DNA of 64,000 nucleotides from an uncultured Bacteroidales bacterium (GTDB lineage: Bacteria > Bacillota_I > Bacilli_A > RFN20 > CAG-826): contig CAVJMG010000001.1 in the NCBI GenBank assembly GCA_963650805.1, positions 334,554 to 398,553 of the forward strand, written 5' to 3'. Made by a program: the position numbers and the translations under genes. The notes under the pieces are model-generated. The model did no database searches. It saw only the letters and a program-made list of their open reading frames with translations, and was not told the DNA's origin. Shown one piece after another: positions 32,728-54,718 of the stretch (position 1 is the first letter of the stretch; the number at the start of each line of letters is the position of its first letter).

Positions 32728-32730
32728 CGT

Positions 32731-38402: not shown

Positions 38403-38607
38403 GAATGCGCAACTGGCAAGGTTAATAAATAGGTTGCGCAATGGTTTTCCATATAGTTGCGCAAGGAAACCTTCGAACGTTCTCCAACCGTTTTTCCCGT
38501 ATTCGTCTTTCTTATTTACCGGTAATTTGAATGAAATTTTGTGCTGATTAGACAGTTTCTTTGAATTGGCAAATAATTCAGATTCCATCGCTATTTTTAG
38601 AATGAGA

Positions 38608-38674
38608 TTCCCTAAGTTGGCGCATTTCAATTCCCTAAGTTGGCGCATTTTAATTCCCTAAGTTGGCGTTTTTA
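38608..38674. repeat. Three tandem direct repeats of about 23 bp (ttccctaagttggcgcatttcaa)
   Basis: Read directly. They lie just upstream of the HTH-ugd start region. Confidence 0.85.
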
Positions 38675-38962: not shown

Positions 38963-39397
38963 CTATTTCTTATGCTTTTCTAGATACGACTCTTTTAGCC
39001 TATCTATCGCCATCTCCACGCTCATCGTATGGTAGGCCAAATAAGTAACGCGCATCGTCTTCGTGGGAGCTTGCCTATAGATTTCCTTGCTGCTTTCTCC
39101 TGTGTAAAAGTGCCATCTCCGATAAACGTATCCCATCCAATATAGAGTCTCGCGGTCGTAAGTCTCTCCGCCTATTTTCAGCTTGTCTTTAAGCTCATCG
39201 AGGATGCGTTCCATGATGTATTCTTTGCCCGCCCACTGCATGTGGTTGAATTCCGAGTCGAGGTCTCTAGCGATATCCGAGGTCATAAACGCTTTCACGA
39301 AGGAGTCACTATCTAAGCCCTTCTCAATGGACATTTCGAAAAGCTGCCCCTGCATGTCAGAAAGAGAGGATTGCAAAGCCCTATGCATGTAGCTCAC
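38963..39397 (-). CDS. Hypothetical protein, DUF3791-like partner of the downstream gene
   Basis: 144 aa. Overlaps the upstream gene by 17 nt. Confidence 0.4.
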   Translation of the reverse strand: MSYMHRALQSSLSDMQGQLFEMSIEKGLDSDSFVKAFMTSDIARDLDSEFNHMQWAGKEYIMERILDELKDKLKIGGETYDRETLYWMGYVYRRWHFYTGESSKEIYRQAPTKTMRVTYLAYHTMSVEMAIDRLKESYLEKHKK

Positions 39398-40034
39398 CCC
39401 TTAGGATTTCGTCGAAGTATCTTCCTTCTCTGCGGTATTTCAGCAGTGTCTCTTCCGTGAGGCTAATCCCCTCTTCTCTCCTAGCGATGCTTTTATCCCG
39501 AAGCGCCCCTAGCTCAAGAGGTGAAAGCTCTCTGCTAGAGATGATTTCAAGATGTTCGCAAGCCTTAGGCGTTTTGCAAACGTATTGATATCCCAAATCC
39601 AAAGCCGAGAGGCTACGGATGAGCGAGACATCGGTAATCTCCTTTTCGAAAAAGTTCTTCATCACGCGGTACATGCGATCGTCGGCGATATAGCCAAGCA
39701 CCACGTCGTATCCATCCGTAAGACTTGCGTACTTCTTATAGATTTCGCAGCCCTTGGCTTCGTCCATATAGCCCCTATAGCAGGCAATCAGTAGCGCCCA
39801 TTCAAGGTCCATCTTCATCTCCAAAACTTTAAGACCCGATAAATCGAGTTTCATCGTATATAAAACCGGTTTCTCCTCGCCACATATCAAAGTCAAAGCA
39901 TCCGCGGAATCGCTGCAGAGGTAAAAGCCTTTGCCAAAATCGCATGAAGCGCGACTTATCGGCGAGATTTTGCCCGCGAGGCCCTTCTTAGAGCCGTGAT
40001 AAACAATCAGGCTTTCGTCGTAATTGCGTTTCAT
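39381..40034 (-). CDS. DUF3990-like protein (putative toxin-like module)
   Basis: N-terminal …LIVYHGSKK… and …DFGKGFYLC… resemble the DUF3990 signature. Confidence 0.45.
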   Translation of the reverse strand: MKRNYDESLIVYHGSKKGLAGKISPISRASCDFGKGFYLCSDSADALTLICGEEKPVLYTMKLDLSGLKVLEMKMDLEWALLIACYRGYMDEAKGCEIYKKYASLTDGYDVVLGYIADDRMYRVMKNFFEKEITDVSLIRSLSALDLGYQYVCKTPKACEHLEIISSRELSPLELGALRDKSIARREEGISLTEETLLKYRREGRYFDEILRGELHA

Positions 40035-40055: not shown

Positions 40056-41381
40056 TTAGTTTCGCAGCAAGGCCAGAGGAACGACATAAACCCCATCCTC
40101 ACGTCGATAGGCGAATTTGCCCTTGGTAACAACCATCAAAAAGGCCGGGCTCTCTTTTTCTTGTTTTATGTCTTGGGAGAGTTTGACGAGCTTTTCGCAA
40201 GCTAGGTTTATGTCTTCTTCGTCCCCGAGCTTAATTTCAATTAACGCCCATTCCCCATCGTTGAATACGATGACGGCATCCGCTTCCCGGTCGTAGGAAT
40301 CCCTATAATGGTATATTTTGGCGCCTATGGAATCGGCGTAGACACGCAGGTCGCGAATGGCCAAAGACTCAAACAAGAAGCCGAATGTCCTCATGTCACG
40401 GAAAAGCGAATCCGGGGTTAGCCCCAGACAAGCCGTCGCAATCGAAGGATCGACGAAATAATGGGTGGGCTTGCTTCTGACCGCGGATTTGCTGCGAAGG
40501 TTGGTGTTCCATGCCTCCATTTCCTCAATAACGTAAAGCTTCCGCAAAGACAAAAGATATTTGGAGAAGGTCTCTCCGTCGATGGAGCAATATTCAGAAA
40601 GGTCCTTAAGGAGTTCCTTCTCCGCCGATTGTCCCCCGATGTGACGGGAATAGGAGCGCATAACCGCACGGGATTTCTGGGAATCCTGACGCAGAGGAAC
40701 GCTCTTTAACGAAAAAACGTCATCTTCGACCAGGCCCTCGTAGAAGTCGATTGCCTGTTGCAAAGCAACGGAGGAGTCTTCGCCAACGGATGTCGGCCAT
40801 CCGCCGCGACAAATATAAGAAGCATAATCTTCAATCGTCGCTTTCGAGATCGATGGGGTGAATGTCCCCGCCTTCAAGCCCGCAAGCGAGACCGTGCCTA
40901 GACTATCCCGGCTCTCAAAAAGCGACATTGTGCGCATTCTTTTGCGCACGATTCTCCCGGTCCCCGTATGCGTTTCATCCGCGCCGTCGCCCTTATTCGC
41001 GTCCAAGGCGTCGGTGACGCTCCCGGTCAAAATATATTGGCCGAATTCATCGTTTTCATCGATCGCGCTTTTTAGATCATCCCAAATGAAGGAGACAATC
41101 TGCCATTCGTCGATAAGGATGGGTTTTGGCCCGTAATTGAGAAAGTGCTGAATCGCGTTTTTGGCGAGCGCGACATATTCCTTGCGCGTTGAGCGAGGAA
41201 GCATGTTGATGGTTGTCGCCGCAAAACGCTCCGCGGTTCTAGATTTGCCACACCACTTAGGCCCCACAACCAAAACTGCCCCTTTGCTTTTAAGGGCAAA
41301 CTCCAATGTTTGGTCAAACAAGCGAGGGATATAGTCTTTTTTCATACATATGATTTTATGTGTGTCTATCAATGTTTTCAA
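40056..41381 (-). CDS. AAA+ ATPase with C-terminal DUF4143
   Basis: Walker A VLVVGPKWCGKSRTAE. 441 aa. Close paralogue of 50946..52226. Confidence 0.8.
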   Translation of the reverse strand: MKTLIDTHKIICMKKDYIPRLFDQTLEFALKSKGAVLVVGPKWCGKSRTAERFAATTINMLPRSTRKEYVALAKNAIQHFLNYGPKPILIDEWQIVSFIWDDLKSAIDENDEFGQYILTGSVTDALDANKGDGADETHTGTGRIVRKRMRTMSLFESRDSLGTVSLAGLKAGTFTPSISKATIEDYASYICRGGWPTSVGEDSSVALQQAIDFYEGLVEDDVFSLKSVPLRQDSQKSRAVMRSYSRHIGGQSAEKELLKDLSEYCSIDGETFSKYLLSLRKLYVIEEMEAWNTNLRSKSAVRSKPTHYFVDPSIATACLGLTPDSLFRDMRTFGFLFESLAIRDLRVYADSIGAKIYHYRDSYDREADAVIVFNDGEWALIEIKLGDEEDINLACEKLVKLSQDIKQEKESPAFLMVVTKGKFAYRREDGVYVVPLALLRN

Positions 41382-41844: not shown

Positions 41845-42789
41845 ATGGAAAACACAGAACCTAAAATCCTATGCCGCTTGATCGCAGGAAAAGAGGCCGC
41901 CTCGCCTTTTGCAGAGGAAGCCCTCGCCTTTTTCCAAGAGGGAATGAGGCCTTTCTGCCACCAGTATTTCGCGGGGCTCATCCCCAACGCGAAGAAGGAA
42001 GAGATTGAAAGCGCGGCCTACGAGGCCTTCAAGAAGCTCGGGGAAACCTATTTGGGGCTCCGCAAAAAGGATTTTGACGCGTATGTCGAAGAGCATAAGG
42101 AAGAACATGATTCTGCTTTAAGCTCTTCTTTTTTCGCCTCATTCGAGGATCCTGAGCTCGCCTATAGGCTCTCGCTTCTTTCTGCCAACTACACCCTCTA
42201 TACCCGCATGGGAGACCAAGCTTTGATCGTGGACCTCGAATCCAATGTCCCCCTCTCCTATATAAAGGAGGAAGAGCCTATTGTCCTCCCCGAAGAAAAA
42301 GAAGAGGAGCCGGTTAAAGAAGAAGAACCCAAAGAAGAACCTCAGGAAGAGCCCAAGGAAGAGGGACCCGAGGAGGCTGAAGAAAGCGAGGAAGAGGCCG
42401 AAGAGGAGGAAAACCCCTTCGCTAACATCAAACGCCGCACCTTCTCCGAGAAGCTCAAGAAAGCCTCCCCTGAACTCAGGAAGAACTACAAAGCCATCAA
42501 GCAGGCGGCCATCGACTGCAAGCTTAAGGGTCGCGTCTCCAAAGCCGCGGACACCTATCACCTCGGCAGGAAGACCTATCTCAAAATCACCATCGCGGGC
42601 AAAACGCTCAAATGCTATTTCGCCGTCGACGCGAAGAACTACGCCGATACGGCGATCCCCTTGGAAGTCTCCGACAAGAAGGCTTATCAAGACACCCCCA
42701 CTTTGCTCCGCGTGAAGAGCTCCTTAGCTGTTAGGCGCGCGATCTCCATCATCTCCGACATGACCGCCGAGCCGAAGGAGAACGAATGA
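41845..42789 (+). CDS. Hypothetical cytoplasmic protein with a central acidic (E/P/K-rich) low-complexity linker; first gene of the TasA/SipW operon
   Basis: RBS ggagacaaattATG. No signal peptide. …EEEPVKEEEPKEEPQEEPKEEGPEEAEESEEEAEEEE…. 4-nt overlap with the next gene. Confidence 0.6.
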   Translation: MENTEPKILCRLIAGKEAASPFAEEALAFFQEGMRPFCHQYFAGLIPNAKKEEIESAAYEAFKKLGETYLGLRKKDFDAYVEEHKEEHDSALSSSFFASFEDPELAYRLSLLSANYTLYTRMGDQALIVDLESNVPLSYIKEEEPIVLPEEKEEEPVKEEEPKEEPQEEPKEEGPEEAEESEEEAEEEENPFANIKRRTFSEKLKKASPELRKNYKAIKQAAIDCKLKGRVSKAADTYHLGRKTYLKITIAGKTLKCYFAVDAKNYADTAIPLEVSDKKAYQDTPTLLRVKSSLAVRRAISIISDMTAEPKENE

Positions 42790-43289
42790 TCAAGAAAGGC
42801 GTTATCATAACCCTTTTCGCCCTGTCCGGGGTCGTTTTAGGCGCAACCGCCGCCATACCCGTTTGCTATGCCTTAAACGAGCAGTATCAAAACGTCGCCT
42901 CCTCGCAAAGTGACGGAAACGTCATGGTCAAGGACGAAGAGGTCCACCTCTCCACCGACGAGAACCCCCTGTTCCCCGGAGATAAGAGAACGCTGACGAT
43001 CGATCTCAAGCAAACGATTGAGAAGAGCAACAAAGTCAGCGTCTACTTCGATAAGTACTCAGGGCAGGGTTACGAATACCTCTCGCTGTCCATCAAAGAC
43101 GAGGAGCAGACCTATATGCCTGATGCCCTCATCGAAAGCGCGACGAGCGAGTCCCCTTGGGAATTCTCCATGAAGGTAGGCAAGCAAAGCGGCCTGAGCT
43201 TCGTCTACACCTTAAGCAAAGACGTCCCAAGCACTTACGAGGACCTCGCCTTCTCGTTCACGATGCATCTAAGGGTCAATTGGAGATAA
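42786..43289 (+). CDS. Membrane-anchored or secreted accessory protein (possible TapA-like partner)
   Basis: N-terminal MIKKGVIITLFALSGVVLGATAAIPVCYALNEQ hydrophobic segment with a SipW-cognate-like …YALN… motif. About 140-aa extracytoplasmic domain. Confidence 0.5.
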   Translation: MIKKGVIITLFALSGVVLGATAAIPVCYALNEQYQNVASSQSDGNVMVKDEEVHLSTDENPLFPGDKRTLTIDLKQTIEKSNKVSVYFDKYSGQGYEYLSLSIKDEEQTYMPDALIESATSESPWEFSMKVGKQSGLSFVYTLSKDVPSTYEDLAFSFTMHLRVNWR

Positions 43290-43302: not shown

Positions 43303-43575
43303 ATGCTCGTATTAATCATCTGCATCTGCGTCTTAGGCTTAGCGGTGTCGGGGTATCTGACCTACGCCGGCATCGACTCGCTCATCAAAAACAAAAATGA
43401 GCCAAAGCCGGTGACGATGACGCCAAAACCCAGTTTATATCGAGTGAGGGCATACCCATTCGTTTATAAAGGAGAAGACAGCCAAAAGCCCGAAGGTCTC
43501 TTCTCCGCTTCCATCCTTCACAAAGACGAGGGGAAGCAAAAAGAAACCGAAGAGGGCTTAGAAGAAAGGAGGTAA
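43303..43575 (+). CDS. Small membrane protein (one N-terminal transmembrane helix)
   Basis: MLVLIICICVLGLAVSGYLTYAG…. Tightly packed between operon genes. Confidence 0.4.
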   Translation: MLVLIICICVLGLAVSGYLTYAGIDSLIKNKNEPKPVTMTPKPSLYRVRAYPFVYKGEDSQKPEGLFSASILHKDEGKQKETEEGLEERR

Positions 43576-43578
43576 CAA

Positions 43579-44202
43579 ATGAAAAGCACGCACATCAAAG
43601 CATTGCTCATCGCTTCAGGCGTTGCCGCGCTAGCTTTAGGCGGAACAGTCGCAGGAACGTTCGCCTTGTTCCAAAGGAACACCCAAGTGGTGACCCACGT
43701 CAAGGTCGGGAACCTCAACTTCAAGTTCAGCCGCACCAACCTCAAGTACAAAGCGCTCAGCGATAGCACGGGCTACCTCGAAGAGAAGGAAGACAAGACC
43801 GTCGTCGACTTAAGCGAAGACGGATCGAAGGCCTTCGATCTCGCTAGCTTAGCCCCGGGCAGCGAAGTGGCGTCCACCTTCGAGCTCGAGAACATCGGGG
43901 GAACCGCCTTCAAGACGAGCCTCGACCTTCTTAACGTCGAGATCAAGAAGGATGGGGTGACCGCGACCTCGGTCGATTGGCTCCAGTACGTTTCCGTCTC
44001 CTTGATCGAAGGGGAGAAGAAAACAGACTTCACCTTAAAAGACCTCAAGACAGTCAGCCTAATCGATTTGCCGAAGGGGCAGAAGACAAACTTCGTCATG
44101 AAGCTGTCCTTCGACGCCGAGCACATCGAAAACGAAGCGCAGGACCATGACCTCAGCTTCGCGATAAGGCTCAGCTGCACCCAACTCTTAACCCAAGCCT
44201 AA
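43579..44202 (+). CDS. TasA/camelysin-family secreted protein with a SipW-cognate signal peptide (paralogue 1)
   Basis: …ALALGGTVAGTFALFQRNT…, then …LAPGSEVASTFELENIGGTA…, which parallels TasA (GTWAAF…, NLKPGDKLTKDFQFENNGSL). RBS ggaggtaacaaATG. Confidence 0.75.
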   Translation: MKSTHIKALLIASGVAALALGGTVAGTFALFQRNTQVVTHVKVGNLNFKFSRTNLKYKALSDSTGYLEEKEDKTVVDLSEDGSKAFDLASLAPGSEVASTFELENIGGTAFKTSLDLLNVEIKKDGVTATSVDWLQYVSVSLIEGEKKTDFTLKDLKTVSLIDLPKGQKTNFVMKLSFDAEHIENEAQDHDLSFAIRLSCTQLLTQA

Positions 44203-44214: not shown

Positions 44215-44775
44215 ATGAAAAAGAACAAAGTCTTAATGGCCTCCACCATCGTCGCCTTATTGGCCGCCAGCGGAGCGGTCGCCGGAAGCTACGCCTACTT
44301 CAGCGCTTCCAAAGACGCCCCCGCCACGGTCAAGATGGCCAAAGTCGACCTCGAGGTCTCCATCAAAGAAAATTCCCTAGAGCTCTACTCCATGGACAAG
44401 AAGCAAGAGGGAAGCAAATTCGAAAACGGCGGAGAAGCCAAATTCACCACGATCACCCTTAATGGAACGTCGGTGAAAGCATTGTCCCTAGACCGCGTAT
44501 CCCCCGGGGATGCGGTGAAATTCAATTTGGGGATAAACAACCTCTCCAACATCGCCGTCGCCTACAAAATCAGCATCGCCTTAGCCGACGCCACGGAAGA
44601 TTGCCCCTTCACCCTCACCGGGGAAGTGGCCGATTGGCAGAAGATCGCCGCCGCGGAAGCAATTCCCGACAAGCCCGTCTCCATATCCTTCCCCAAGGAA
44701 AAGGAGAACGAGTATCAGGATAAATCCTATACCATCCTGATCAACGTCAACGCGATCCAGGCTAACGCCGTCTGA
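44215..44775 (+). CDS. TasA/camelysin-family secreted protein (paralogue 2)
   Basis: …LLAASGAVAGSYAYFSAS… and …VSPGDAVKFNLGINNLSNIA…. C-terminal …AIQANA motif shared with the other paralogues. Confidence 0.75.
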   Translation: MKKNKVLMASTIVALLAASGAVAGSYAYFSASKDAPATVKMAKVDLEVSIKENSLELYSMDKKQEGSKFENGGEAKFTTITLNGTSVKALSLDRVSPGDAVKFNLGINNLSNIAVAYKISIALADATEDCPFTLTGEVADWQKIAAAEAIPDKPVSISFPKEKENEYQDKSYTILINVNAIQANAV

Positions 44776-44801: not shown

Positions 44802-46199
44802 ATGAAACTTACAAAAAAAATCACGAAAACCCTGATCCTCTCCGGCGCGACAGCCCTTGCCTTCGGCACCGTTGCAGCGGGCACCACCTACGCTTTATTC
44901 ACCTCCAACGCGGAGAGTGAAGTCGTCGTCACCTCCGGTAAGGTCAGCGTGACTTCCGAAATCAAGGTCAAAGAGAAGTATCGCCCCGCTTTGATCAGCC
45001 AAGAAGAAGGGAACGAGATCGTTGAATCCAGCAACATCGCCGAAACCTCCGACCTCGAAGTCAGCGTCGAAAACAACAACGTCAAAATCGCCAAGATGCT
45101 CCCTGGCGACAAAGTGACCCTCACCGTCACCCCGAAGAACGAGAGCAACGTGAAGATCAAATATCGCGAAACCTATTCCTTCATCGGAGACGTCGCTAGC
45201 GACCTCAAAATCACCGGCGACGAAAAGATGGTCAAGCTTTGGACCGAACTCGGCGTCGGAGAAGCCATCGAGGCTTATGACATCGTCGTTGAGCTCCCCA
45301 CCACCGCCGTGGGCGAAATCGAAGAAACCACCATTAAACTAGGCATCGAAGCCGTCCAGGGCAACGCCCAAGTGGTTGACGAAGTCGTCAAAACGGAAAA
45401 AGAGCTTCAAGACGCAATCGACGCTCTGAAAACTTCCACCGACAAAAACCTCAGCGTCACCCTCTCCGAGGACCTTGCCCTAACCGCTCCCTTGGAAGTC
45501 AACGGGAACGTCACCATTTACGGAACCACCAAAGAAGATGGTAGCAAGACCAAAATCACCGCCCCTTCTGATGGCGCTGAGAATCAGCGCAGCATAACCG
45601 TTAACGACAACACCGATCCGGTCTCCTTGACTCTTGTTGGCATCGATGTCGAGGGGCCGACCACAGGCTCTGAAACTCGCGGCATATCGCTCGCAGCGAA
45701 CAAAGACCTCACCCTCATCATGGACGATTGCAGCATCTCAACGAATTACTATGCGCTGAATCTTGCGTCTGGAAACGAAAAAGCCAACATTTACATCCGC
45801 AACAGCACCTTAAAGGGTTGGGCCGCCGTGAACGTATGGTCACCAAACAACATCAGCAAAGCGGTTTTCGAAAACTGCACCCTGATTGGTGATAGCATCT
45901 CAAGGGAGGTCTTCCCCACCATCAGCTTGTACGAATGTGATAACAGCGAATTCACTTTCAAAGGCTGCACTATCAAAGCAAACGAACTTGGAACCAGCAA
46001 AGACGACATCAAACAGTTATTCTTCTACAGCGACGCAAAAAACAGCAAAGTCACTTTCAGTGATTGCAGTTTCTACAAAACATTCACAGATATCGGAGAA
46101 ATTCAATTATCAGGCTCCGAAGCTGCAAGTTTGATGTACGCGTCCGAATCCAGTTCTACGACAATCATCGACGGCGTTTCCTACGTTTACGAAGATTAA
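44802..46199 (+). CDS. TasA-like N-terminal domain fused to a C-terminal parallel β-helix-like passenger domain (paralogue 3)
   Basis: AAGTTYALFTSNAES signal and …MLPGDKVTLTVTPKNESNV…. The C-terminal 270 aa have repeated N/D/G-C-T/S-I/L/F turns (NCTLIGD, GCTIKAN, DCSFYK). Confidence 0.7.
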   Translation: MKLTKKITKTLILSGATALAFGTVAAGTTYALFTSNAESEVVVTSGKVSVTSEIKVKEKYRPALISQEEGNEIVESSNIAETSDLEVSVENNNVKIAKMLPGDKVTLTVTPKNESNVKIKYRETYSFIGDVASDLKITGDEKMVKLWTELGVGEAIEAYDIVVELPTTAVGEIEETTIKLGIEAVQGNAQVVDEVVKTEKELQDAIDALKTSTDKNLSVTLSEDLALTAPLEVNGNVTIYGTTKEDGSKTKITAPSDGAENQRSITVNDNTDPVSLTLVGIDVEGPTTGSETRGISLAANKDLTLIMDDCSISTNYYALNLASGNEKANIYIRNSTLKGWAAVNVWSPNNISKAVFENCTLIGDSISREVFPTISLYECDNSEFTFKGCTIKANELGTSKDDIKQLFFYSDAKNSKVTFSDCSFYKTFTDIGEIQLSGSEAASLMYASESSSTTIIDGVSYVYED

Positions 46200-46227: not shown

Positions 46228-48426
46228 ATGAAACTTACAAAAAAAATGACGAAAGGACTGATCCTCTCCGCTTCCGCGGCCCTGGCATTCGGGGCCGTGG
46301 CGGCCGGGACGACCTATGCCTTATTCACCTCTAACGCGGAGAATTCCGTGAGCGTCAGCTCCGGTAAGATCTCCTTGAAAAGCGAAATCCTCAATCTCAA
46401 GCTCTATTCCTTAAGCGAAGAGACTGGCGAGATCGTTCCTCTTGAAAGCGAAGATACCTTCACCCTTGGAGGCACCGCGACTATTGATGGAACCACCCTC
46501 AAGCTCGACAAAGTCGTTCCTGGCGACAAAGTCGAATTCGAGATCAAGGTCACCAACGAGTCCAACGTCGACATCAAGTTCCGCGAAGTGTTCAAGACCG
46601 TCAAAGATACCGGCCTTGGCAGCGGGCTTGAATACACGATCGACGAAGAGACCTACGATGGCGGAACCATCATCACCGACTATGAGCTTTGGGAAGCCAA
46701 GGCTGCGGAGCAAGAAAAGACCGTCAAGGTCTCCATCGCTCTCCCCAAGAGCGCCGAGAACATCTATCAGGAGAAATCCTGCGAGCTCTCCTTCAATTTC
46801 GAGGCCATCCAGAAGAACGCGAAGACGGAAGACGTCGATTCTACCGTTTATCAGATCTACACGCCGACCGATTTAAGCGCCTTCGCTAATAAGGTCAGCG
46901 CCGGAACCTTCACCTGCGATAAGGTCATCTTGATGGATGACATCGATATGGATGGACTTAGCTACATGTCACCGATGTACGCTAGGGAAAATACCGCTAT
47001 CGAATTCGATGGAAACGGCAAAACCATCAAGAACCTCGTCGCTCTCGAAAACAGCGATAAATCCGGCAACCGCGGAGCTGGCTTATTCGGAAAAGTGGGA
47101 CACGGAAGCCTAAACATCCATAATCTCAATATGGAGAACGTCACCGTTTCCGGCAGCTTCACCGTCGAGGGCGATCAGCACTTAGGCGGAGGGGCTATCG
47201 TCGGAACGAGTGACAGCGGCGTAAGCGCCATTGACATCACCAACGTTTCGGTCACTGGCGTTAGCGTCAAAGGCGTTAAGTACGCCGGCGGAATCGTTGG
47301 ATACAGCTCCATTGGCGGAACAGATACGATTAAAAACGTGACCGTCAAAGATGCTGAAATTTCCGGTTACACAGCCGGTGGCGTCATCGGCCAAGTCGGC
47401 GGCGGAAAAGCCGTCATCAATGGAGTCGAAGGCAGCGGCATCGTTGTTGATGGATATAAGAGAGAGGGCGGAATGGTTGGTGCAAATTCCGGTACAAGTC
47501 TCACCATCACCTACGACGAAGCCGAATACTCCTCCTCCATTTCCGGAGAGGCCTTTGGCAACAGAGGAACCATCGTCGGGCTCACCGGGGACACCACCGT
47601 CAACGGCAATCAATACCACACCGCTATCAGCACCGATCAAGTCAAAGGGATTAAGGCCGCTTCGGACAAGCTCAACATCGTCGAAATCTTTGAAGGCACG
47701 TACTCCTTCGGTGGAGCAACTAACCTCCAAAGCGTCAAAGGCGGCGTTGAAGTCCGCGGCATTGGCGACAAAACCAAGATCAAATGGATGCAAGCTGGCG
47801 GAACAGATGTGGGATATGGGTTCTCCGGCACGAATCTGACGATGAAAAACGTCAGCGTCGGAACCGAAGTCACCGGCAACTATCTCGGTTTCCCCGGCGC
47901 CGCTTCCGTTTCGTTCGAAGACTGCGTCTTCAATGTCACCAAAGCCAACGAATCCTTCCGTTACTGGGGCGATGGGGCCGTCAACTTCAAAAATTGCAAG
48001 TTCGATAGCACCAAAGCCGAAGACAGCAACATGTTCACCTACGGCGGCAAGAGCTTCTACTTCGAAGGCTGCGAATTCATCAGCGACGAAGCCGCGATCA
48101 AGCTATATAGAAACGCTAGTCTGACCGACAGCGTCGAAGTGCCCGTCACCATCACCGGCTGCACGTTCAAAAACGTTCATGAAGGCACATGGAGCGATAG
48201 CGATCTGCCGAAGAGGACCGTCCTCAGCATCGATACCGATAATGCCGCCGATAAGACCCACTACAAGGTCACGATGACCAATTCTAGCTACAGCGGCAAC
48301 TACTCCGACGGCATCCTCGCCGACAGGAAAGGCTTGTTTGGAGTCAGGCAACAGGACAAAGTCAAGAAGAGCCTAATCACCTTCACCCTTGACGGAACCA
48401 CGCTCGACTTGGGCCTACCTGAGTAA
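46228..48426 (+). CDS. TasA-like N-terminal domain + GLUG-motif repeat region + β-helix-like C-terminal domain (paralogue 4, 732 aa)
   Basis: The N-terminus is near-identical to paralogue 3. The mid-region has repeated AGGIVGYS, GGVIGQVGGG and GGMVGANSG units (GLUG-type). The C-terminus has DCVFNV, NCKFDS, GCEFIS and GCTFKN turns. Confidence 0.7.
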   Translation: MKLTKKMTKGLILSASAALAFGAVAAGTTYALFTSNAENSVSVSSGKISLKSEILNLKLYSLSEETGEIVPLESEDTFTLGGTATIDGTTLKLDKVVPGDKVEFEIKVTNESNVDIKFREVFKTVKDTGLGSGLEYTIDEETYDGGTIITDYELWEAKAAEQEKTVKVSIALPKSAENIYQEKSCELSFNFEAIQKNAKTEDVDSTVYQIYTPTDLSAFANKVSAGTFTCDKVILMDDIDMDGLSYMSPMYARENTAIEFDGNGKTIKNLVALENSDKSGNRGAGLFGKVGHGSLNIHNLNMENVTVSGSFTVEGDQHLGGGAIVGTSDSGVSAIDITNVSVTGVSVKGVKYAGGIVGYSSIGGTDTIKNVTVKDAEISGYTAGGVIGQVGGGKAVINGVEGSGIVVDGYKREGGMVGANSGTSLTITYDEAEYSSSISGEAFGNRGTIVGLTGDTTVNGNQYHTAISTDQVKGIKAASDKLNIVEIFEGTYSFGGATNLQSVKGGVEVRGIGDKTKIKWMQAGGTDVGYGFSGTNLTMKNVSVGTEVTGNYLGFPGAASVSFEDCVFNVTKANESFRYWGDGAVNFKNCKFDSTKAEDSNMFTYGGKSFYFEGCEFISDEAAIKLYRNASLTDSVEVPVTITGCTFKNVHEGTWSDSDLPKRTVLSIDTDNAADKTHYKVTMTNSSYSGNYSDGILADRKGLFGVRQQDKVKKSLITFTLDGTTLDLGLPE

Positions 48427-48446
48427 TCTAAACTCTACATCTTAGA

Positions 48447-48482
48447 CACAGGGGGCTATAATAAAGTCCCCCTGTGTTTTCT
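48447..48482 (+). terminator. Stem-loop (10-bp stem acacaggggg/ccccctgtgt) plus T-tract between the structural genes and sipW; possible partial terminator or attenuator
   Basis: acacagggggctataataaagtccccctgtgttttct read directly. Confidence 0.4.
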
Positions 48483-48486
48483 AACT

Positions 48487-49239
48487 ATGGAACAAGACAA
48501 AGAAGCAAATAGCAACAAAGGCAAAAGAAAAGTAGCCAAAATCATTGGAAACTCCGTTTTCTACACCATTCTTGGCCTGCTTACCGTTTTCGCCGCATTT
48601 TCGATTACCTCTAGGATTACCGGAGGTAGGATTGGCGATAGCCAGTATCTTGTCGTCATCTCCGGATCAATGGATGGCGAAAGGCAAGAAGAATATCCCA
48701 TCAAGACCATTCCGGTGAAATCCCTCATCAAGGTGGATTTGATCAAAGACGGCGAAGAGAAGGAATTCTATTCTTCCCTTAAGAAGGGGGACGTTTTGAC
48801 GTTTAACTACGCTTCTTTGAATAACGTGACCATCACCCACAGAATCATCGAGGATCCGTTGCTATTAAGCGATGGAACCACCTATCAAATTAAACTCAAA
48901 GGGGACGCGGTCGAGGGGAATGAGATTCAAACCCTTTATAGCGATGGCAGAACCGGAGAGGTCATCGGCAAAGTCTCCTTCGTGTCCTTGCCCTTAGGAC
49001 AGATGTACTTCTTCATGTCGAGCAAGATGGGAACCCTGGTATTGGTAATCCTCCCCTGCAGCGCGGTCTGCATCTACGAGATCGCCAAAATCGTTTACAT
49101 CCTCTCAGAGAACAAACGGAAAAAGAAGGAAGAGGCCGCTCAGGCAGTCACTTCAAGCAAGGACAAAGAGATCGAGGAGCTCAAAGCCAAGCTCGAGGCG
49201 ATGCAAAAGCAAAGCCAAGAAGAAAAGAAAGAGGAGTGA
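48487..49239 (+). CDS. sipW: Signal peptidase I of the SipW (archaeal/ER, S26B) type, with a charged coiled-coil C-terminal tail
   Basis: VVISGSMDGE (catalytic Ser box) and GDVLTFNYASLNNVTITHRIIEDP (His box), compared with B. subtilis SipW SGSMEP / …VTHRIV…. N- and C-terminal transmembrane helices. The tail is …KRKKKEEAAQAVTSSKDKEIEELKAKLEAMQKQSQEEKKEE. Confidence 0.8.
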   Translation: MEQDKEANSNKGKRKVAKIIGNSVFYTILGLLTVFAAFSITSRITGGRIGDSQYLVVISGSMDGERQEEYPIKTIPVKSLIKVDLIKDGEEKEFYSSLKKGDVLTFNYASLNNVTITHRIIEDPLLLSDGTTYQIKLKGDAVEGNEIQTLYSDGRTGEVIGKVSFVSLPLGQMYFFMSSKMGTLVLVILPCSAVCIYEIAKIVYILSENKRKKKEEAAQAVTSSKDKEIEELKAKLEAMQKQSQEEKKEE

Positions 49240-49258: not shown

Positions 49259-49283
49259 GCGGGCTTCGGCCCGTTTTTCTTAT
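49259..49283 (+). terminator. Rho-independent terminator after sipW
   Basis: gcgggcttcggcccgtttttctt: GC stem with a TTCG loop and a T-run. Confidence 0.5.
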
Positions 49284-49378: not shown

Positions 49379-50663
49379 CTATTTTTTAAGGATTTTCCAA
49401 TACCCCGATTTATTCGTCCCCGCCCGTTCTATCCTTTTTTCAGCTTTTAAGTCTTTGATGATTTTAACGACTCTGGTTCTGCCTAAGCCGGATAGCTCGC
49501 ATAGCCCACTTAGGGTGAGGCTTGGGTTTTGATTCAATAAGACAAGTATCTTGTTATGGCTTGGGCTCAAATTAGCCTCCAACCGCTCAAAGCTTGGTTG
49601 GAACGCAAAGGGGAAGGTCACTACGATGTGGTTCTCAAAGAGAGAGCGCCTCTTTTCCGTATTTGGAGATTATCAAAGGCACGCCGTGGCCGGTTTGCTC
49701 AATGTAATCGAGCTGCCCCATTATTTTCATCAAACTCATATTTATTGGATGGCTCACGCCTTGGAAAAATTCCTCTTTCGAAAAATCTAAAGGCAGGCCC
49801 CCCGTAGATACAATTTCAATTCGATTGGAGAAAATGTAGATTGCCGGAGGCACGTTTCTCGCCCATCTATTGTGCAAGCATGCGTTCGTCCAAGCCTCGT
49901 CTAAACAAGCTTCGTCAAAGAGCTTTGTTTCTTTTCTCTCTAGGCCTTGATTTAGATTCACTCTCGTTTCGTTGAACGAAGAGGCGAACTCATACGCTTG
50001 CCTCATCGCCAAAAGCATGCATTTGTATCCAAATTCGTTTCTGGAGATCATCTCCGTCTTGTCCTCGCCCCTGAAACGGACGACCTTAATGGAGCAGTTG
50101 TTATTGTCGGACAAAATTTCGGCAATGTAGTTGTATGTCCCCTTGGACGTTAATAAGCCCATATTCTTTGCGAATGTGGCGTTATCGCTTGAAAAACCAT
50201 GCGCTACATACAAAGACTTAAGCCCATTAAAGGTCAAATCTTGATCCAAAGACTCTATTTTTTCGGCGGCGAGGTTGGAATTGGTAAAGAACAAATCTCC
50301 GAGCTGCTCCGGCAATATCTTTTTATTTTCGCTACCAACGCGAATAAGATAATTTCCAAAACAGGCATAGGGTTTCTTGTCTCCGCTTGCTTCAACCTCA
50401 ATCACCGTTTTATCTCCATGGGCAATAGGAGTTATTTTGGCGAGTACGGAAAGAACAATTGCTTCTTTGATTCTTGTACCGATTTTCTTAATCGTTTCTC
50501 GGCTAAAATCTTTCGCCCCTTCGATTTCGGCGTTATCGAGAACACCAAAAGCAACCTTCCCATGACCGCTTTTATTAAGCGTGGCAGAGAGCGCCTCCAA
50601 GCCACGGTCTAATTGACTTGGGGATTTCTTGAATTCTACCGTTTCGTTTTCGTATCTCTGCAA
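49379..50663 (-). pseudogene. AlbA_2 (Schlafen-like) + HATPase_c_4 + wHTH putative transcriptional regulator, split into two ORFs by a frameshift near 49621-49635
   Basis: N-terminal …ENETVEFKKSP… (PF04326-like). The C-terminal ORF ends …RVVKIIKDLKAEKRIERAGTNKSGYWKILKK (wHTH). Confidence 0.55.
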
Positions 50664-50945: not shown

Positions 50946-52226
50946 TCAGTTCTTCAAGCAAGCAAGCGGGACAACCCAAACGCCGTCTTCCCTTTGATAG
51001 GCGTATTCCGTCGCGGTGATGACCATAAGGAACTCGGGCTTCTTCATTCTTTGATCATCAATCAAAGAAGCCAAGCGGAGCAGGTTTTTCGCTCCTTCTT
51101 CAATGCGGTCTTGATCGTGCAATTTAATTTCGAACGCGGCCCATTTGCCGTTATAAAGATGAATCACGGCATCGGCTTCAAGCCCGTTTCTATCGCGATA
51201 ATGGTAAACCTCGCCACCGAGGGTATCGGCGTATATCTTCAAGTCCCTCACGGCCAGATCTTCGAAAACTAAGCCAAACGTGTTCAAATCATTAATCAGA
51301 TCTTCTTTATAAGCTCCCAAGGCCCGGCAAGCAATGGAGGGGTCCACGAAATGCCTTGTCGGGGAAGTTCTTATGGTCGTTTTGCTTCTTAGATTCGGGC
51401 ACCAAGCTTTTATGTCATCTATCACGTACAATTTCTCGAAGGCCTTGATATAGGACTTAACGGTCTCATCGCTGATGAGCTTTTGGTTGCCGCCATTGAT
51501 GTCCGAAAGTATGGTTTCAACGCTGCATTCGGTCGATACGTTGCGGGCGTAGGAGCGCAAGAACAATTTGACTTTATCAATATCTCTAGAAACGTTATCG
51601 ACGCTTCTTATATCGTTTTCGACCAAGCCGTCATAATAGTTCTTCGCAATTTCCATCGACACCTTTTCGCTTTGCCCAACCGATTTTGGCCAACCGCCTC
51701 GGCAACAATAAAAAGCGTAATCGAGCAGTTTCTTATCGCTAAAGGCAGGATTCACCTTTTCATTTCGAAAAAGAGAGGCAAGGGATATTTGCCCGTTGCT
51801 ATCAAGCGACTCATAAAGGCTCATAGGGCGCATAACCAAAGAAGAAATCCGCCCTACTCCGCTATGCTGCTTTTGCTTTTCTTCTTCATCCATTAATGGA
51901 GTTGCGCTTCCAGTCAGGATGAATTGCCCAAATTCATCCCGTTTATCAATCTCATATCGAATATCGTCCCAAATAAACGGAACAATTTGCCATTCGTCGA
52001 TCAGTCTCGGCGTATCGCCGGATAAAAAGAATTCAGGGGCGTTTTTTGCCAAAGCTATATTTTGGTCCCTGTCTTTCCGATTCTGCATATAAACAGAGCT
52101 CTTCGCGATGCGCTCTGCGGTCGTTGATTTCCCACACCATTTGGGACCCTTTATCCAAACCGCCCCAGAACTCTCTAACTTTTCTTTCAGCAGCGTATCC
52201 GCGCATCTATTCAAATATTGCTTCAT
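50946..52226 (-). CDS. AAA+ ATPase with DUF4143
   Basis: VWIKGPKWCGKSTTAE Walker A. The C-terminus …VVPLACLKN is paralogous to 40056..41381. Confidence 0.8.
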   Translation of the reverse strand: MKQYLNRCADTLLKEKLESSGAVWIKGPKWCGKSTTAERIAKSSVYMQNRKDRDQNIALAKNAPEFFLSGDTPRLIDEWQIVPFIWDDIRYEIDKRDEFGQFILTGSATPLMDEEEKQKQHSGVGRISSLVMRPMSLYESLDSNGQISLASLFRNEKVNPAFSDKKLLDYAFYCCRGGWPKSVGQSEKVSMEIAKNYYDGLVENDIRSVDNVSRDIDKVKLFLRSYARNVSTECSVETILSDINGGNQKLISDETVKSYIKAFEKLYVIDDIKAWCPNLRSKTTIRTSPTRHFVDPSIACRALGAYKEDLINDLNTFGLVFEDLAVRDLKIYADTLGGEVYHYRDRNGLEADAVIHLYNGKWAAFEIKLHDQDRIEEGAKNLLRLASLIDDQRMKKPEFLMVITATEYAYQREDGVWVVPLACLKN

Positions 52227-52257: not shown

Positions 52258-52349
52258 TTTGGCAATTTGGCAACGTTTCATTTGGCAATTTGGCGGTGTT
52301 TCATTTGGCAATTTGGCGGTGTTTCATTTGGCAATTTGGCAATCTCTTA
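52258..52349. repeat. About 3.7 tandem copies of a 23-bp unit (tttggcaatttggcggtgtttca)
   Basis: Read directly, 30 bp upstream of the ATPase start. The core ttggcg…tttca resembles the 38608-38674 repeats. Confidence 0.9.
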
Positions 52350-52445
52350 GGCATAAGCAAAACTGCGACATGGCCATTAAGGGCGATAAAGGAGGGCAGA
52401 CGATGCCTTTACCATAAAAGGCAAAGGGAAGATAATACGAGGGAT

Positions 52446-53555
52446 ATGAAGGTTTTACTGACAGGAGCGAAGGGATTCATCGGGAAAAACCTTTCCCTTC
52501 ATTTGCAACAAAAGGGACACGAGGTTCTCTCTTTCGACAAAGAGAATAGCGATGAGGATTTGAAGACTTATCTTAGCCAAGCTGATTTCATCGTGCATCT
52601 AGCGGGCATAAACCGTCCGCTTAAAGAAGAAGAGTTCTTCGACGGTAACGTCAACTTCACCGTTAAGCTATTAGACTACCTCAAAGCCTCAGGCAGGAAG
52701 ATACCCCTACTCTTCTCTAGTTCCACCCAAGCCGAGAAAGACAACCCCTATGGGCGTTCCAAAGCCATGGCGGAGTCCCAAATCTTCGCTTTTGACGAGC
52801 AAAGCGGCAACCCCGTTTACGTCTACCGCCTCTATAACGTCTATGGCAAGTGGTGTCGCCCTAGCTATAACTCCGTCATCGCCACCTGGTGCTACAACAT
52901 CTCGAGAAATATCCCCATTCAAATCAACCCTTCCGCGGGAAAGATAGATTTCGTCTATATCGATGACGTTTGCCGCGAAATCGTTTCGTTAATCGAAGGG
53001 GAGATATCCCCTTCTTGCAAGGATGTCCATCACGTTGAGCCCCATGACTCCGTAACGTTAGACGAGGTAGCAAGATTATTGCTAAGCTTCAAGGAATCGA
53101 GGGAAAACTTCCTCGTCCCCGAAATAGACACCCCCTTCAAAAAGAAGCTTCACGCGACTTACCTCTCCTATCTCCCAGAAAGCGAATTCGATTATCCCCT
53201 CAATAGCCATAAAGACCAGCGAGGCTCCTTCACCGAGATTTTAAAGACCGCCAAAGAAGGCCAGTTCTCCGTTAACGTCATTAATCCCGGGGTCACCAAG
53301 GGAAATCATTACCACCACACCAAAAACGAGAAATTCGTCGTTTTAAGCGGAACGTGCCTCGTCCGTTTCAGGAAGCTTGGAAGCGAGGAAGTCCTCTCCT
53401 ACACCTTAAACGGCGAAGAAATGAGGGTTCTTGATATCCCCGTAGGATACACTCACAGCATCCAAAACGTCGGAAAAGAGCAAGCCATCGTCTTCATGTG
53501 GGCCTCGGAGAGCTTCGATCCTAGTAACCCCGACACCTACCCCTGCAACGTCTGA
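52446..53555 (+). CDS. capF: CapF/WbjC-like bifunctional SDR + cupin enzyme (UDP-L-FucNAc / 6-deoxy-hexosamine pathway)
   Basis: MKVLLTGAKGFIGKNL… Rossmann N-terminal domain and a C-terminal cupin (…GNHYHHTKNEKFVVLSG…). Followed by capG. Confidence 0.7.
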   Translation: MKVLLTGAKGFIGKNLSLHLQQKGHEVLSFDKENSDEDLKTYLSQADFIVHLAGINRPLKEEEFFDGNVNFTVKLLDYLKASGRKIPLLFSSSTQAEKDNPYGRSKAMAESQIFAFDEQSGNPVYVYRLYNVYGKWCRPSYNSVIATWCYNISRNIPIQINPSAGKIDFVYIDDVCREIVSLIEGEISPSCKDVHHVEPHDSVTLDEVARLLLSFKESRENFLVPEIDTPFKKKLHATYLSYLPESEFDYPLNSHKDQRGSFTEILKTAKEGQFSVNVINPGVTKGNHYHHTKNEKFVVLSGTCLVRFRKLGSEEVLSYTLNGEEMRVLDIPVGYTHSIQNVGKEQAIVFMWASESFDPSNPDTYPCNV

Positions 53556-53566
53556 AAGGAAACCCC

Positions 53567-54718
53567 ATGGATAAGAAAATCAAACTCATGACCATCTTAG
53601 GCACCCGGCCTGAGATCATCCGCTTGTCTGAGGTCATCAAAGCCTGCGACAGGGCCTTTGACCACGTTTTGGTGCATACGGGCCAGAATTACGATTACGA
53701 GCTCAATCAAATCTTCTTTGAGCAGCTTGGGCTTAGAAACCCCGATTATTACCTCAACGTCGTCGGCACAAACCTCGGGGAGACCATGGGCCAGGTGATT
53801 TCGAAATCCTATGATTTGATCGCGGAGGTCAAACCCGACGCGATCCTCATCTTAGGGGACACCAATAGCGCCCTTTCCGCTATTTCGGCCAAGCGCTTAA
53901 AATGTCCCATCTTCCATATGGAGGCGGGGAACCGCTGCTGGGACTGGAACGTCGCCGAAATGACGAACAGGACCATCGTCGACCACATCGCCGACATCAA
54001 TATGCCCTATAGCTATTTCGCCTACGGAAACCTCTTAAAAGAAGGCTGTTCCCCAAAGAATACTTTCATCACGGGCTCCCCGATGAAAGAGGTCATCTCC
54101 GCCCACATAAGCGAAATCTCCTCCTCAAGGATCCTAGAGGAAAGAGGACTTGAGAAAGGGCATTACATCGTCATGTCCGCCCATAGGGAAGAAAACGTGG
54201 ACATCAAAGAGAAATTCGACCGCCTCTATCCTAGCCTCAATCGCATCGCCGAGCACTTCAAGATGCCCGTGGTCTTCTCCGTCCACCCAAGGACGAGGAA
54301 ACGCTTCGAGGAAAAGGGATTCGTCTTATCGAGCTATATCCGCGAGGACAAGCCCTTCGGGTTCTTCGATTACTGCGCCCTCCAAAAAGGGGCCTACGTC
54401 GTCTTAAGCGACTCGGGGACGCTTTCGGAGGAGTCTTCCATTCTAGACTTCCCCGCCGTGCTCATCCGCACCTCCAGCGAACGCCAAGAGGCCAATAGGC
54501 ACGGCTCCATCGTTTTAGGGGGCGTGGACTACGAAACCATCTTGCCCGCGATAGAGCAAGCTAGGGAAATCCATCGCCCAGGCAATTCGTTACCCATCGT
54601 CTTAGACTACTCCAGTGAAGACGTGTCGAAGACAGTCGTCAACATCATCGAAAGCAATATCGATAGAATAAATAAAGAAACGTGGCTCAAAGGAGTAAGG
54701 GACGAAGCTCATTTATAA
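53567..54718 (+). CDS. capG: UDP-N-acetylglucosamine 2-epimerase (non-hydrolysing; Cap5G/WecB type)
   Basis: MDKKIKLMTILGTRPEIIRLSEVIKACD…HTGQNYDYELNQIFFEQLGL…. Confidence 0.85.
   Translation: MDKKIKLMTILGTRPEIIRLSEVIKACDRAFDHVLVHTGQNYDYELNQIFFEQLGLRNPDYYLNVVGTNLGETMGQVISKSYDLIAEVKPDAILILGDTNSALSAISAKRLKCPIFHMEAGNRCWDWNVAEMTNRTIVDHIADINMPYSYFAYGNLLKEGCSPKNTFITGSPMKEVISAHISEISSSRILEERGLEKGHYIVMSAHREENVDIKEKFDRLYPSLNRIAEHFKMPVVFSVHPRTRKRFEEKGFVLSSYIREDKPFGFFDYCALQKGAYVVLSDSGTLSEESSILDFPAVLIRTSSERQEANRHGSIVLGGVDYETILPAIEQAREIHRPGNSLPIVLDYSSEDVSKTVVNIIESNIDRINKETWLKGVRDEAHL

Follow-up and report, generated by a model that had tools for sequence, protein, structure and literature searches.

TasA fibres are the model protein scaffold in the biofilms of Gram-positive bacteria, and the fibres known to date are built from single-domain subunits and one accessory protein. 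What role can such a subunit have when it carries a long passenger? The question is raised by a gene at 46228-48426 (+ strand) of the window, i.e. the whole stretch of 64,000 nucleotides that was analyzed. The gene has an ATG start, is preceded by a GGAG-type ribosome-binding site and encodes a protein of 732 aa (p732); the host is an uncultured gut Firmicute. A preliminary description, made from the sequence alone, had read p732 as a TasA-like domain followed by GLUG repeats and a parallel β-helix. Our analysis supports this three-part architecture, in which a TasA-like domain at the N-terminus is followed by a β-helix of the GLUG type and then by another domain that resembles a β-helix. Probably, p732 is a secreted protein that acts as an adhesin on a fibre, with the TasA-like domain in front and the β-helix and the β-helix-like domain behind it.

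Domain architecture of p732

The AlphaFold2 model of the protein (pLDDT 88.7, pTM 0.83) is confident, except for aa 1-44, which are unstructured (pLDDT <50). The sole hydrophobic segment is N-terminal; neither Pfam searches nor sequence inspection revealed an anchor, be it LPXTG, SLH, dockerin or another type, and no catalytic motif was recognized in p732. Around 15 full-length orthologues, with 43-57% identity, have the same architecture.

The N-terminal module comprises a SipW-type signal peptide (aa 1-31; 46228-46320, +), the mature N-terminus with a predicted donor strand (aa 32-49; 46321-46374, +) and a predicted β-sandwich of the TasA superfamily (aa 50-200; 46375-46827, +). The signal is probably cleaved after A31 (TTYA/LFTS, with the slash at the cut), a prediction from the sequence; in an hhalign alignment the site falls on the cleavage site of TasA, and the motif is of the same type in both proteins (TWA/AFND in TasA, TYA/LFTS in p732). 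Within the family of N-terminal modules A31 and F33 are invariant, and conservation reaches 90% or more at G27, T29, L32, T34 and S35. Strong conservation behind the cleavage site concerns L32, F33, T34, S35 and G46 and, in alignment A1, also K47 and V48. The assignment of the donor strand rests on this conservation, on the disorder in the AlphaFold2 model and on the hhalign alignment of the segment with the TasA donor strand (residues 28-38; PMC9674648).

As had been proposed, the first ~190 aa are paralogous to three upstream proteins. BLASTP aligned the N-terminal ~200 aa with the 465-aa protein (p465; 41% identity over 206 aa, aa 1-206, E=3e-32), the 186-aa protein (p186; 32%, E=1e-17) and the 207-aa protein (p207; 29%, E=6e-8). 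The first 33 aa had been called near-identical to those of p465; the similarity stands, but 27/33 residues (82%) makes them very similar instead, and at the DNA level 116/150 nt match at the 5' ends of the two genes. The p465 leader, 82% identical to that of p732, gives a TIGR04088 signal with E=0.028.

The relation to TasA itself is one of low sequence identity, and the Pfam model PF12389 matches p732 below its gathering cut-off (19.2 bits versus 22.5; E=0.0011; aa 3-51 only). The same model matches 21 of 42 family members (E<=0.1), and the relatives P0160 (32.6 bits) and P0247 (23.7 bits) pass the cut-off. A profile search against TasA, which the preliminary description had singled out as the check on the N-terminal domain, did yield an alignment at E=4e-7. 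More specifically, the trimmed profile of the N-terminal family (A3) matched the PDB sequences of TasA (5of1, E=4.2e-7; 8aur, E=7.4e-7) in two segments, namely the PGDK strand and the C-terminal YQ...EA.Q.N strand, and archaeal AbpX with E=0.02. With hhalign the family aligned to TasA over 149 columns, which begin in the signal peptide and extend as far as the final strand (97% probability, E=9e-11); the TasA sequence used in this comparison agrees with the PDB alignments. On the basis of sequence profiles the β-sandwich body of the p732 family is homologous to TasA, and the motifs PGDK and YQ..S..L.F..EA.Q.N occur in both.

The first part of the passenger is a capping helix with a compact right-handed β-helix of the GLUG type (aa 206-465; 46843-47622, +). 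The Gly-rich repeats noted earlier do exist (units start at aa 283, 321, 354, 384, 414 and 447), but the period is not ~20 aa; it is about 30-36 aa, which corresponds to one β-helix coil. The Pfam models GLUG (PF07581), Peptidase_M26_N (PF05342) and Beta_helix have no match to p732 at E<=1. Among 42 homologues GLUG matches 11 and M26_N two, and both models also match more distant relatives. The domain is homologous and identical in fold to solved GLUG β-helices, including the N-terminal β-helix of the M26 IgA1 proteases; its counterparts are found in these proteases and in BACOVA_03286 (3n6z, 7jgj/6xja, 7uvk). The M26 N-terminal β-helix is non-catalytic, and that of the pneumococcal enzyme binds the IgA1 Fab (PMC7695701). 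Whereas β-helices of the M26/BACOVA_03286 type are attached to G5/LPXTG modules or a lipoprotein signal, that of p732 is attached to a TasA-like module. A role of p732 as IgA1 protease was considered and rejected: the protein has no match to Peptidase_M26_C, lacks the M26 catalytic domain and, over its full length, has no HExxH motif.

The second part (aa 466-732; 47623-48423, +) is a β-rich, family-specific domain with a ladder of F-x-x-C-x-F coils. Judging from the AlphaFold2 model it is probably a β-helix as well, with strand pairs every 24-27 aa at a pLDDT of ~90. The Cys-containing turns reported before (DCVFNV, NCKFDS, GCEFIS and GCTFKN) are indeed present, with the cysteines at positions 566, 590, 615 and 645 (24, 25 and 30 aa apart). 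Of these, C590 and C615 are shared without exception by the 16 full-length proteins that were aligned (p732 and 15 orthologues). A profile of this domain found no relative among the PDB sequences, and none was found in Pfam.

The operon and comparable fibre systems

The gene of p732 is the seventh in an operon of eight, which has gaps between genes of -4 to 60 nt, includes genes for four clear TasA-like paralogues and closes with that for a signal peptidase of the SipW-like type. The entire operon is conserved in another species with 53% identity (orthologous operon L002). Gene 1 (41845-42789, +) encodes a protein of 314 aa with an acidic Glu/Pro/Lys-rich stretch and no signal peptide, for which Pfam and NCBIfam gave no family match; its stop overlaps the start of gene 2 by 4 nt, and it is also the first gene in L002. 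The 167-aa product of gene 2 (42786-43289, +) has an N-terminal hydrophobic segment (hydropathy maximum 2.34 at aa 6) and the motifs 'CYAL' and 'FPGDK'. The gene is kept in L002 and in locus L082, and an hhalign comparison of the protein with the N-terminal domain family gave E=0.0044 at a probability of just 7.8%; possibly the protein is a divergent fifth member of the TasA-like group, with a role as anchor or terminator. Gene 3 (43303-43575, +), encoding 90 aa with one N-terminal membrane-spanning segment (hydropathy 2.68 at aa 1), is likewise kept in orthologous operons.

The two following genes encode single-domain TasA-like paralogues. Gene 4 (43579-44202, +) specifies p207, a candidate shaft or adapter subunit with the signal motif VAGTFALFQ, which matches PF12389 with E=2e-4 (21.7 bits, gathering cut-off 22.5) and TIGR04089 with E=3e-4. 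Gene 5 (44215-44775, +) specifies p186, a candidate major shaft subunit; here the PF12389 match spans the protein (aa 5-182 versus profile positions 5-191 of 196, E=0.006), and the SipW-type signal model TIGR04088 reaches 20.3 bits and so passes its cut-off (19). The product of gene 6 (44802-46199, +), p465, combines a TasA-like domain with a Cys-ladder β-helix-like passenger of its own. The operon therefore encodes two fusion proteins, a point that was absent from the preliminary description. The C-terminal domains of p465 and p732 are weakly related (BLASTP E=3e-4; hhalign E=5e-4).

Gene 8 (48487-49239, +) starts 60 nt 3' of the p732 stop codon and encodes a SipW-like (ER/archaeal-type) signal peptidase I of 250 aa with membrane-spanning segments, the motifs SGSM and THR and a Lys/Glu-rich tail. 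It matches NF046067 SipW (E=1.8e-15) and TIGR02228 (E=6.8e-13), in both cases below the curated cut-offs. A sipW-like gene was present in the fetched flank of 29 of the 42 loci, from different species, that bear the signal motif, and in none of the fetched flanks of loci that match the passenger only. Promoter and terminator scans did not exceed the shuffled expectation, and among their results only the terminator-like hairpin at the end of the operon, behind sipW, is noteworthy (49259-49274, +; GCGGGCTTCGGCCCGT then TTTTCTTATG; a consensus match only). The window contains no tRNA genes.

The tapA-sipW-tasA operon of B. subtilis resembles the locus in that a dedicated ER-type signal peptidase is encoded together with several paralogous substrates, the larger of which, TapA, is a proposed donor of the first strand. 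There are clear differences as well. TasA and CalY are single-domain proteins, whereas p732 joins a complete TasA-like domain to a β-helix passenger of ~530 aa; the extra domain of TapA is, unlike p732, not a TasA-type sandwich with a β-helix; and the p732 operon, in contrast to tapA-sipW-tasA, encodes two fusions along with two small subunits and has another three conserved genes.

A matching operon logic is found in the haloarchaeal tat-fimbriae (TafA/TafE/TafC/TafF with peptidase TafD; PMC11821415), where genes for small (major and adapter) subunits, for a subunit of two domains and for a signal peptidase I are likewise combined. TafC starts with a pilin-like β-sandwich that includes a donor strand and ends in a binding domain, a layout like that proposed for p732. 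TafC, whose gene adjoins the signal peptidase I gene, is a tip subunit that occurs about once per 100 TafA and was modelled at the tip as assembly initiator (PMC11821415). The likeness is one of organization; the tat-fimbriae are archaeal, exported via the Tat pathway and equipped with a laminin-G-like passenger, and the p732 operon encodes no obvious equivalent of their anchor TafF, a protein with a membrane segment at its C-terminus. The chaperone-usher tip adhesins FimH and PapG also join a donor-strand-exchange pilin β-sandwich to a receptor-binding domain, as proposed for p732; they occur in few copies at the fibre tip, and their binding domain varies between strains. Nevertheless, they belong to unrelated families and have the opposite polarity, with the adhesin domain N-terminal and a pilin domain that accepts a strand and donates none. 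Furthermore, they depend on a periplasmic chaperone and an outer-membrane usher, and nothing comparable is encoded at the p732 locus.

Exchange of the passenger between strains

A comparison with the near-identical strain GCA_963633445.1 delimited a strain-variable passenger cassette (46800-48423, +). DNA identity is ~100% from 41.8 to 46.8 kb, where the TasA-like domain gives way to the passenger, and from there it falls to 82, 66, 70 and 77% in successive 200-nt bins. Next comes an 870-nt indel (47554-48423 is replaced by 94 nt in L082, where the C-terminal domain is absent), and from 48424 identity is back to 99%. Between the strains dS is 1.06 in the passenger and 0.039 in aa 1-190. The passenger is thus a cassette that is exchanged between strains, while the fibre module is constant. 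In-situ hypermutation of the passenger was rejected as an explanation: the saturated dS of 1.06 together with a dN/dS of 0.25 points to an imported divergent allele. In the neighbouring p465 the strains differ at 12 nt, which are clustered and form a mosaic patch at passenger aa 287-299.

Fibre subunit, free surface protein or enzyme

The reading that we favor, on balance, is that p732 is a subunit of a donor-strand-exchange fibre that displays an adhesin, with its most likely place that of initiator or tip, like TapA and TafC. The protein would be exported and its signal peptide cut, probably after Ala31, by the SipW-like peptidase encoded downstream. Cleavage would free the conserved N-terminal strand (LFTSNAENSVSVSSGK...), through which p732 could undergo donor-strand exchange with p186 and p207, the small paralogues, and so enter a TasA-type fibre. 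The C-terminal passenger, first the GLUG β-helix and then the second β-helix-like domain, would be held off the cell as a binding module. The likeliest site is the initiating, distal end, where the first shaft subunit would take up the N-terminal strand of p732 in its groove; display along the shaft would be the alternative placement. The position at the initiating end is modelled on what has been proposed for Bacillus TapA and for TafC, the two-domain protein of the haloarchaeal fimbriae. In the Bacillus fibres TapA donates the first strand, and the C-terminal tail of TasA provides a contact between subunits (PMC9674648); a passenger of ~530 aa in place of this tail could hinder packing within the shaft. 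For AbpB a role as both initiator and adhesin has been proposed (PMC9245690). By analogy with TapA, AbpB and TafC, the role in cargo display, at a tip or as adhesin that the preliminary description had suggested for p732 is plausible.

An unlikely alternative, although the strongest of those considered, is that p732 is a monomeric secreted or surface protein, in which the TasA-like domain serves just for SipW-dependent export and as a stalk module or uncleaved anchor, and the β-helices act as a free or membrane-tethered binding protein outside any fibre. Against it stands that mean identity among orthologues is higher in the mature N-terminal segment (62%) than in the β-sandwich (50%), which is unexpected of a disposable leader. 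In addition, p732-type genes adjoin those of single-domain paralogues in many species, and all structurally studied branches of the TasA superfamily (TasA, AbpA, AbpX and CanX) form donor-strand filaments (PMC9674648, PMC9245690, PMC12518558). It is still less probable that p732 is a fibre-tethered or secreted enzyme, in which one or both β-helices attack glycans from the host or the diet, or the bacterium's own exopolysaccharide, as polysaccharide lyase, hydrolase or esterase, and the TasA module immobilizes the enzyme in the matrix.

Finally, an assembly chimera near 46.8 kb, joining a TasA-like gene to an unrelated β-helix gene, might be suspected from the sharp divergence of the co-occurring strain at exactly this point, where assemblers can switch haplotypes, but it can be dismissed because another species has the entire operon too, an identical protein of 732 aa is present in two assemblies (the 527-kb NCBI contig and a separate Logan assembly), ~15 orthologous clusters (730-766 aa) align with p732 over its whole length and keep the junction residues (EA.Q.NAK...Y.IYT..DL..FA.K), and the allele of the other strain has the same in-frame TasA-GLUG junction.

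The preliminary description started from the premise that TasA-family proteins are normally single-domain, against which a fusion would stand out. Within the p732 clade this premise fails and fusion is the rule: at E<=1e-10 the N-terminal module was identified in 1,337 protein clusters, nearly always as the first part of a protein of 300-1,978 aa, and in ~142 of the best 150 module-bearing clusters the protein exceeds 300 aa. The suggested search for GLUG or β-helix fusions to PF12389 elsewhere was successful, as clear PF12389+GLUG and PF12389+Beta_helix proteins exist. Besides Beta_helix, the adhesin-type passengers in relatives include BspA-type LRRs and a pectate-lyase-like adhesive domain. 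In the literature we found no description of TasA fused to GLUG, β-helix or adhesin domains, nor of multidomain proteins that depend on SipW; the design is common in gut bacteria, yet unstudied.

Together, the locus and the more than 1,300 related clusters suggest a routine use of the fibre module by uncultured gut Firmicutes, as a handle to which large β-helix or LRR passengers are attached. In that case TasA-type fibres would be more than matrix scaffolds, namely adhesive pili whose heads can be exchanged, which would offer abundant uncultured gut bacteria a testable route of attachment to mucus, immunoglobulin or other cells and would explain the strain-level variation at such loci. Tentatively, one may go further and speculate that gut Firmicutes hold a large, undescribed class of TasA-type donor-strand-exchange pili with interchangeable adhesin cassettes (GLUG β-helices, other β-helices and BspA-type LRRs), whose heads are swapped through recombination at the junction of module and passenger. 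As part of the same speculation, the head of p732 could bind host IgA, since in structure it comes closest to the β-helices with which IgA1 proteases bind the IgA1 Fab. Such pili would add a third adhesive-pilus system to the sortase and type IV pili of Gram-positive bacteria. The sharp module boundary is a natural fusion point and could serve for engineered display on TasA-type fibres. Elsewhere in the same genome a 760-aa paralogue combines, as p465 does, signal and donor segments close to those of p732 with a different passenger, and this protein and p465 would be alternative heads for the same fibre.

Domain architecture of the 732-aa protein

The gene at 46228-48426 (+), which belongs to an uncultured gut Firmicute, encodes, in agreement with the preliminary description, a protein of 732 aa (p732), with an ATG start and a GGAG ribosome-binding site. 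Its N-terminal ~190 aa had been described as paralogous to three proteins encoded upstream (named here by their length in aa), and pairwise comparison of the N-terminal ~200 aa bore this out: identity was 41% to p465 (E=3e-32), 32% to p186 (E=1e-17) and 29% to p207 (E=6e-8). PF12389 scored 19.2 bits on p732 against a cut-off of 22.5 bits, covering aa 3-51 only, and the Pfam/NCBIfam scan gave neither a GLUG nor a Beta_helix match. A search of 5.8 billion proteins returned the exact sequence, orthologues of full length in ~15 clusters (730-766 aa, 43-57% identity) and numerous relatives for which matches to PF12389, GLUG, Peptidase_M26_N, LRR_5 and Beta_helix had been precomputed; when 42 aligned relatives were scanned singly, PF12389 was found in 21 and GLUG in 11. 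The proposed membership of the TasA family held in a profile search: a profile built from 33 trimmed N-terminal domains retrieved, among the PDB sequences, B. subtilis TasA (5of1, E=4.2e-7; 8aur, E=7.4e-7) and archaeal AbpX (E=0.02), and hhalign aligned the domain with TasA from the signal peptide through the last strand (97% probability, E=9e-11). The motifs that correspond in TasA and here, plain to the eye, are TWA|AFND and TYA|LFTS, LKPGDK and VVPGDK, and NKYQGNSIKLQFSFEATQWN and NIYQEKSCELSFNFEAIQKN.

In the AlphaFold2 model (42-sequence alignment, pLDDT 88.7, pTM 0.83) aa 1-44 are without structure and are followed by a β-sandwich (aa 50-195), a capping helix (aa 213-225), β-helix coils (aa ~232-466), a short helix (aa 469-473) and a second region with strand pairs each 24-27 aa (aa 483-726). 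The Gly-rich repeats reported earlier are present, at aa 283, 321, 354, 384, 414 and 447, with a period of ~30-36 aa and not of ~20 aa. The four Cys motifs lie where they had been placed (C566, C590, C615 and C645), and C590 and C615 are invariant in all 16 aligned full-length proteins. Solved structures and Pfam contain no detectable relative of the C-terminal domain; the periodicity of the model and the Cys ladder suggest that it is a β-helix. An HExxH motif and an M26 catalytic domain are absent from p732, as are LPXTG, SLH and dockerin domains, and its sole hydrophobic segment is N-terminal. A word-indexed homology search with this domain alone (47623-48423) gave zero matches. Since it also missed the identical protein P0001, which the full-length query had found, the empty result is no biological evidence and probably reflects a limit of candidate selection.

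Operon and genomic surroundings

The operon consists of eight genes that all point the same way, spaced by -4 to 60 nt, and the gene of p732 comes seventh. The TasA-like paralogues p207 (43579-44202, +), p186 (44215-44775, +) and p465 (44802-46199, +) precede it, and a 250-aa SipW-like ER/archaeal-type signal peptidase I follows (48487-49239, +; NF046067 E=1.8e-15 and TIGR02228 E=6.8e-13, both under the curated cut-offs). A terminator-like hairpin (49259-49274, +) lies directly after this last gene. The operon encodes two fusion subunits, because p465, too, joins a TasA-like domain to a passenger, a feature missed in the preliminary description. Its C-terminal ~270 aa are β-helix-like and display an F-x-x-C-x-F ladder of the same kind as that of p732, and the two C-terminal domains are weakly related (E=3e-4; hhalign E=5e-4). 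The leaders and predicted donor segments (the mature N-termini directly after the predicted cleavage point) of both proteins are closely similar; the first 33 residues, which had been called near-identical, agree at 27 of 33 positions. In another long paralogue, the third (P0108, 760 aa), the leader and predicted donor segment closely resemble those of p732, but the β-helix-like passenger differs. Its gene lies on another contig of this genome in SRR13434624 (locus L084, 8001-10283) and adjoins feoAB and ApbE genes; the 12 kb around it contain no sipW and no small subunit genes.

The operon begins with a conserved gene (41845-42789, +) for an acidic protein of 314 aa that matches no family, lacks a signal peptide and includes a long Glu/Pro/Lys-rich stretch. 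The third product (43303-43575, +; 90 aa) has a single membrane-spanning segment. The second, p167 (42786-43289, +), has a hydrophobic N-terminal segment and two motifs, 'CYAL', which is similar to the cleavage region of SipW-type substrates, and 'FPGDK', which recalls the PGDK of TasA; hhalign gave E=0.0044 but a probability of only 7.8%. Possibly p167 belongs to the family as a divergent fifth member and serves as anchor or terminator. The 60-nt gap between the target and sipW contains a GC-rich hairpin (GGGGGCTATAATAAAGTCCCC; 48434-48471, +) that overlaps a promoter-like TATAAT and could influence how strongly the peptidase is expressed relative to the subunits; overall, the scan for such hairpins and promoters did not exceed the shuffled expectation.

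The operon lies among surface-polysaccharide genes. The flanking region of polysaccharide or teichoic-acid-type biosynthesis (24214-38648 and 52290-54718) encodes a Wzx-type flippase, a Wzy-type polymerase (Wzy_C), GT1, GT2 and GT4 transferases, a CDP-glycerol glycerophosphotransferase, a UDP-glucose dehydrogenase and epimerases. The arrangement echoes the Bacillus matrix, where eps is paired with tasA, and implies a Gram-positive envelope. Four AAA_14/DUF4143 ATPase genes (40056-41381, 50946-52226, 55083-56312 and 58123-59493) are scattered around both gene sets, accompanied by a DUF3990 gene (39381-40034) and a SLFN/AlbA_2-HATPase gene (49635-50663).

Distribution and exchange of passengers

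Among 1.84 billion cluster representatives, 1,860 matched the N-terminal domain (205 aa) at E<=1e-3, and 1,337 of these also did so at E<=1e-10. In the best 150 clusters the domain always occupied residues ~2-205, the host proteins reached 1,978 aa, and just ~8 were under 300 aa. The view that TasA-family proteins are normally single-domain therefore fails in this clade, where fusion is the rule. Fusions of GLUG or β-helix domains to PF12389, for which a search had been suggested, exist in P0160 (PF12389 above the cut-off, Peptidase_M26_N and GLUG) and P0247 (PF12389 and Beta_helix). Across 78 loci of different GTDB species, proteins with the leader G[AST]T[YF]ALFT span ~200 to 1,179 aa, and the long ones often have a single-domain paralogue of 205-230 aa just before them. 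A homologue of the signal peptidase lay inside the fetched flank of 29 of 42 leader-motif loci and in no passenger-only locus (Bacteroidales, Prevotella, Alistipes and others), which argues that the SipW-type peptidase forms a conserved functional pair with the N-terminal module. The GLUG β-helix is a mobile passenger, which in other phyla stands behind different front ends.

Strain GCA_963633445.1 has the same operon with the same flanks. DNA identity is ~100% from 41.8 to 46.8 kb. In the comparison of 46800-48423 with the counterpart locus (10570-11414) it falls, within the GLUG domain, to 82, 66, 70 and 77% in consecutive 200-nt bins; 94 nt take the place of the 870 nt encoding the C-terminal domain (47554-48423), and from the stop codon on the two sequences again agree at 99%. 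The breakpoint coincides with the boundary between TasA-like domain and passenger, and the counterpart protein, of 464 aa, stops where the GLUG helix ends. The dS of 0.039 in aa 1-190 versus 1.06 in aa 200-464, with a dN/dS of 0.25, speaks against local hypermutation and for recombination at the domain boundary that brought in a divergent allele. In p465, 12 nt differences cluster at 45660-45707 (aa 287-299, within the passenger) in an otherwise almost identical gene, which looks like a small gene conversion.

The idea of a two-domain initiator or tip subunit has precedents in chaperone-free donor-strand fibres (TapA, AbpB, TafC). Our literature search found no paper in which subunits of the TasA family carry GLUG, β-helix or LRR passengers, an architecture that is plentiful in the databases. 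The fusion is well founded and widespread, not categorically new, its function is predicted, and the exchange of cassettes between strains makes it more interesting.

A predicted fibre adhesin and its alternatives

Several precedents bear on the function of p732. TapA probably provides the first strand of the TasA fibre (PMC9674648), and archaeal AbpA, AbpX and CanX form donor-strand filaments of the TasA superfamily (PMC9245690, PMC12518558). TafC of the haloarchaeal tat-fimbriae consists of two domains, the first pilin-like and equipped with a donor strand, the second, C-terminal one for binding; there is about one TafC per 100 major subunits, it was modelled as tip and initiator, and its gene adjoins that of a signal peptidase I (PMC11821415). 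The β-helix of IgA1 protease has no catalytic role and touches the Fab of IgA1 (PMC7695701). By analogy, the SipW-like peptidase would cut p732 after A31, the protein would enter a fibre of mainly small paralogues by donor-strand exchange, and its β-helices would be displayed as an adhesin towards a presumed ligand, most likely at the initiating, distal end. We hold with moderate confidence that p732 is such a cleaved, strand-exchanged subunit with a most likely distal adhesin, because its mature N-terminus is without structure in the model yet conserved, the operon combines two small and two large paralogues with a peptidase, no other anchor is present, the passenger behaves as a cassette, and precedents exist.

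That p732 is a secreted or surface protein that does not polymerise is rather unlikely, and a tethered glycan-active enzyme seems improbable. The earlier concern about a chimeric assembly can practically be dismissed, as the identical protein occurs in an NCBI 527-kb contig and a separate Logan assembly of SRR13434624, the full eight-gene operon recurs in GCA_963624045.1 (~53% identity, other genomic neighbourhood), and residues across the junction between TasA-like domain and passenger are kept among orthologues.
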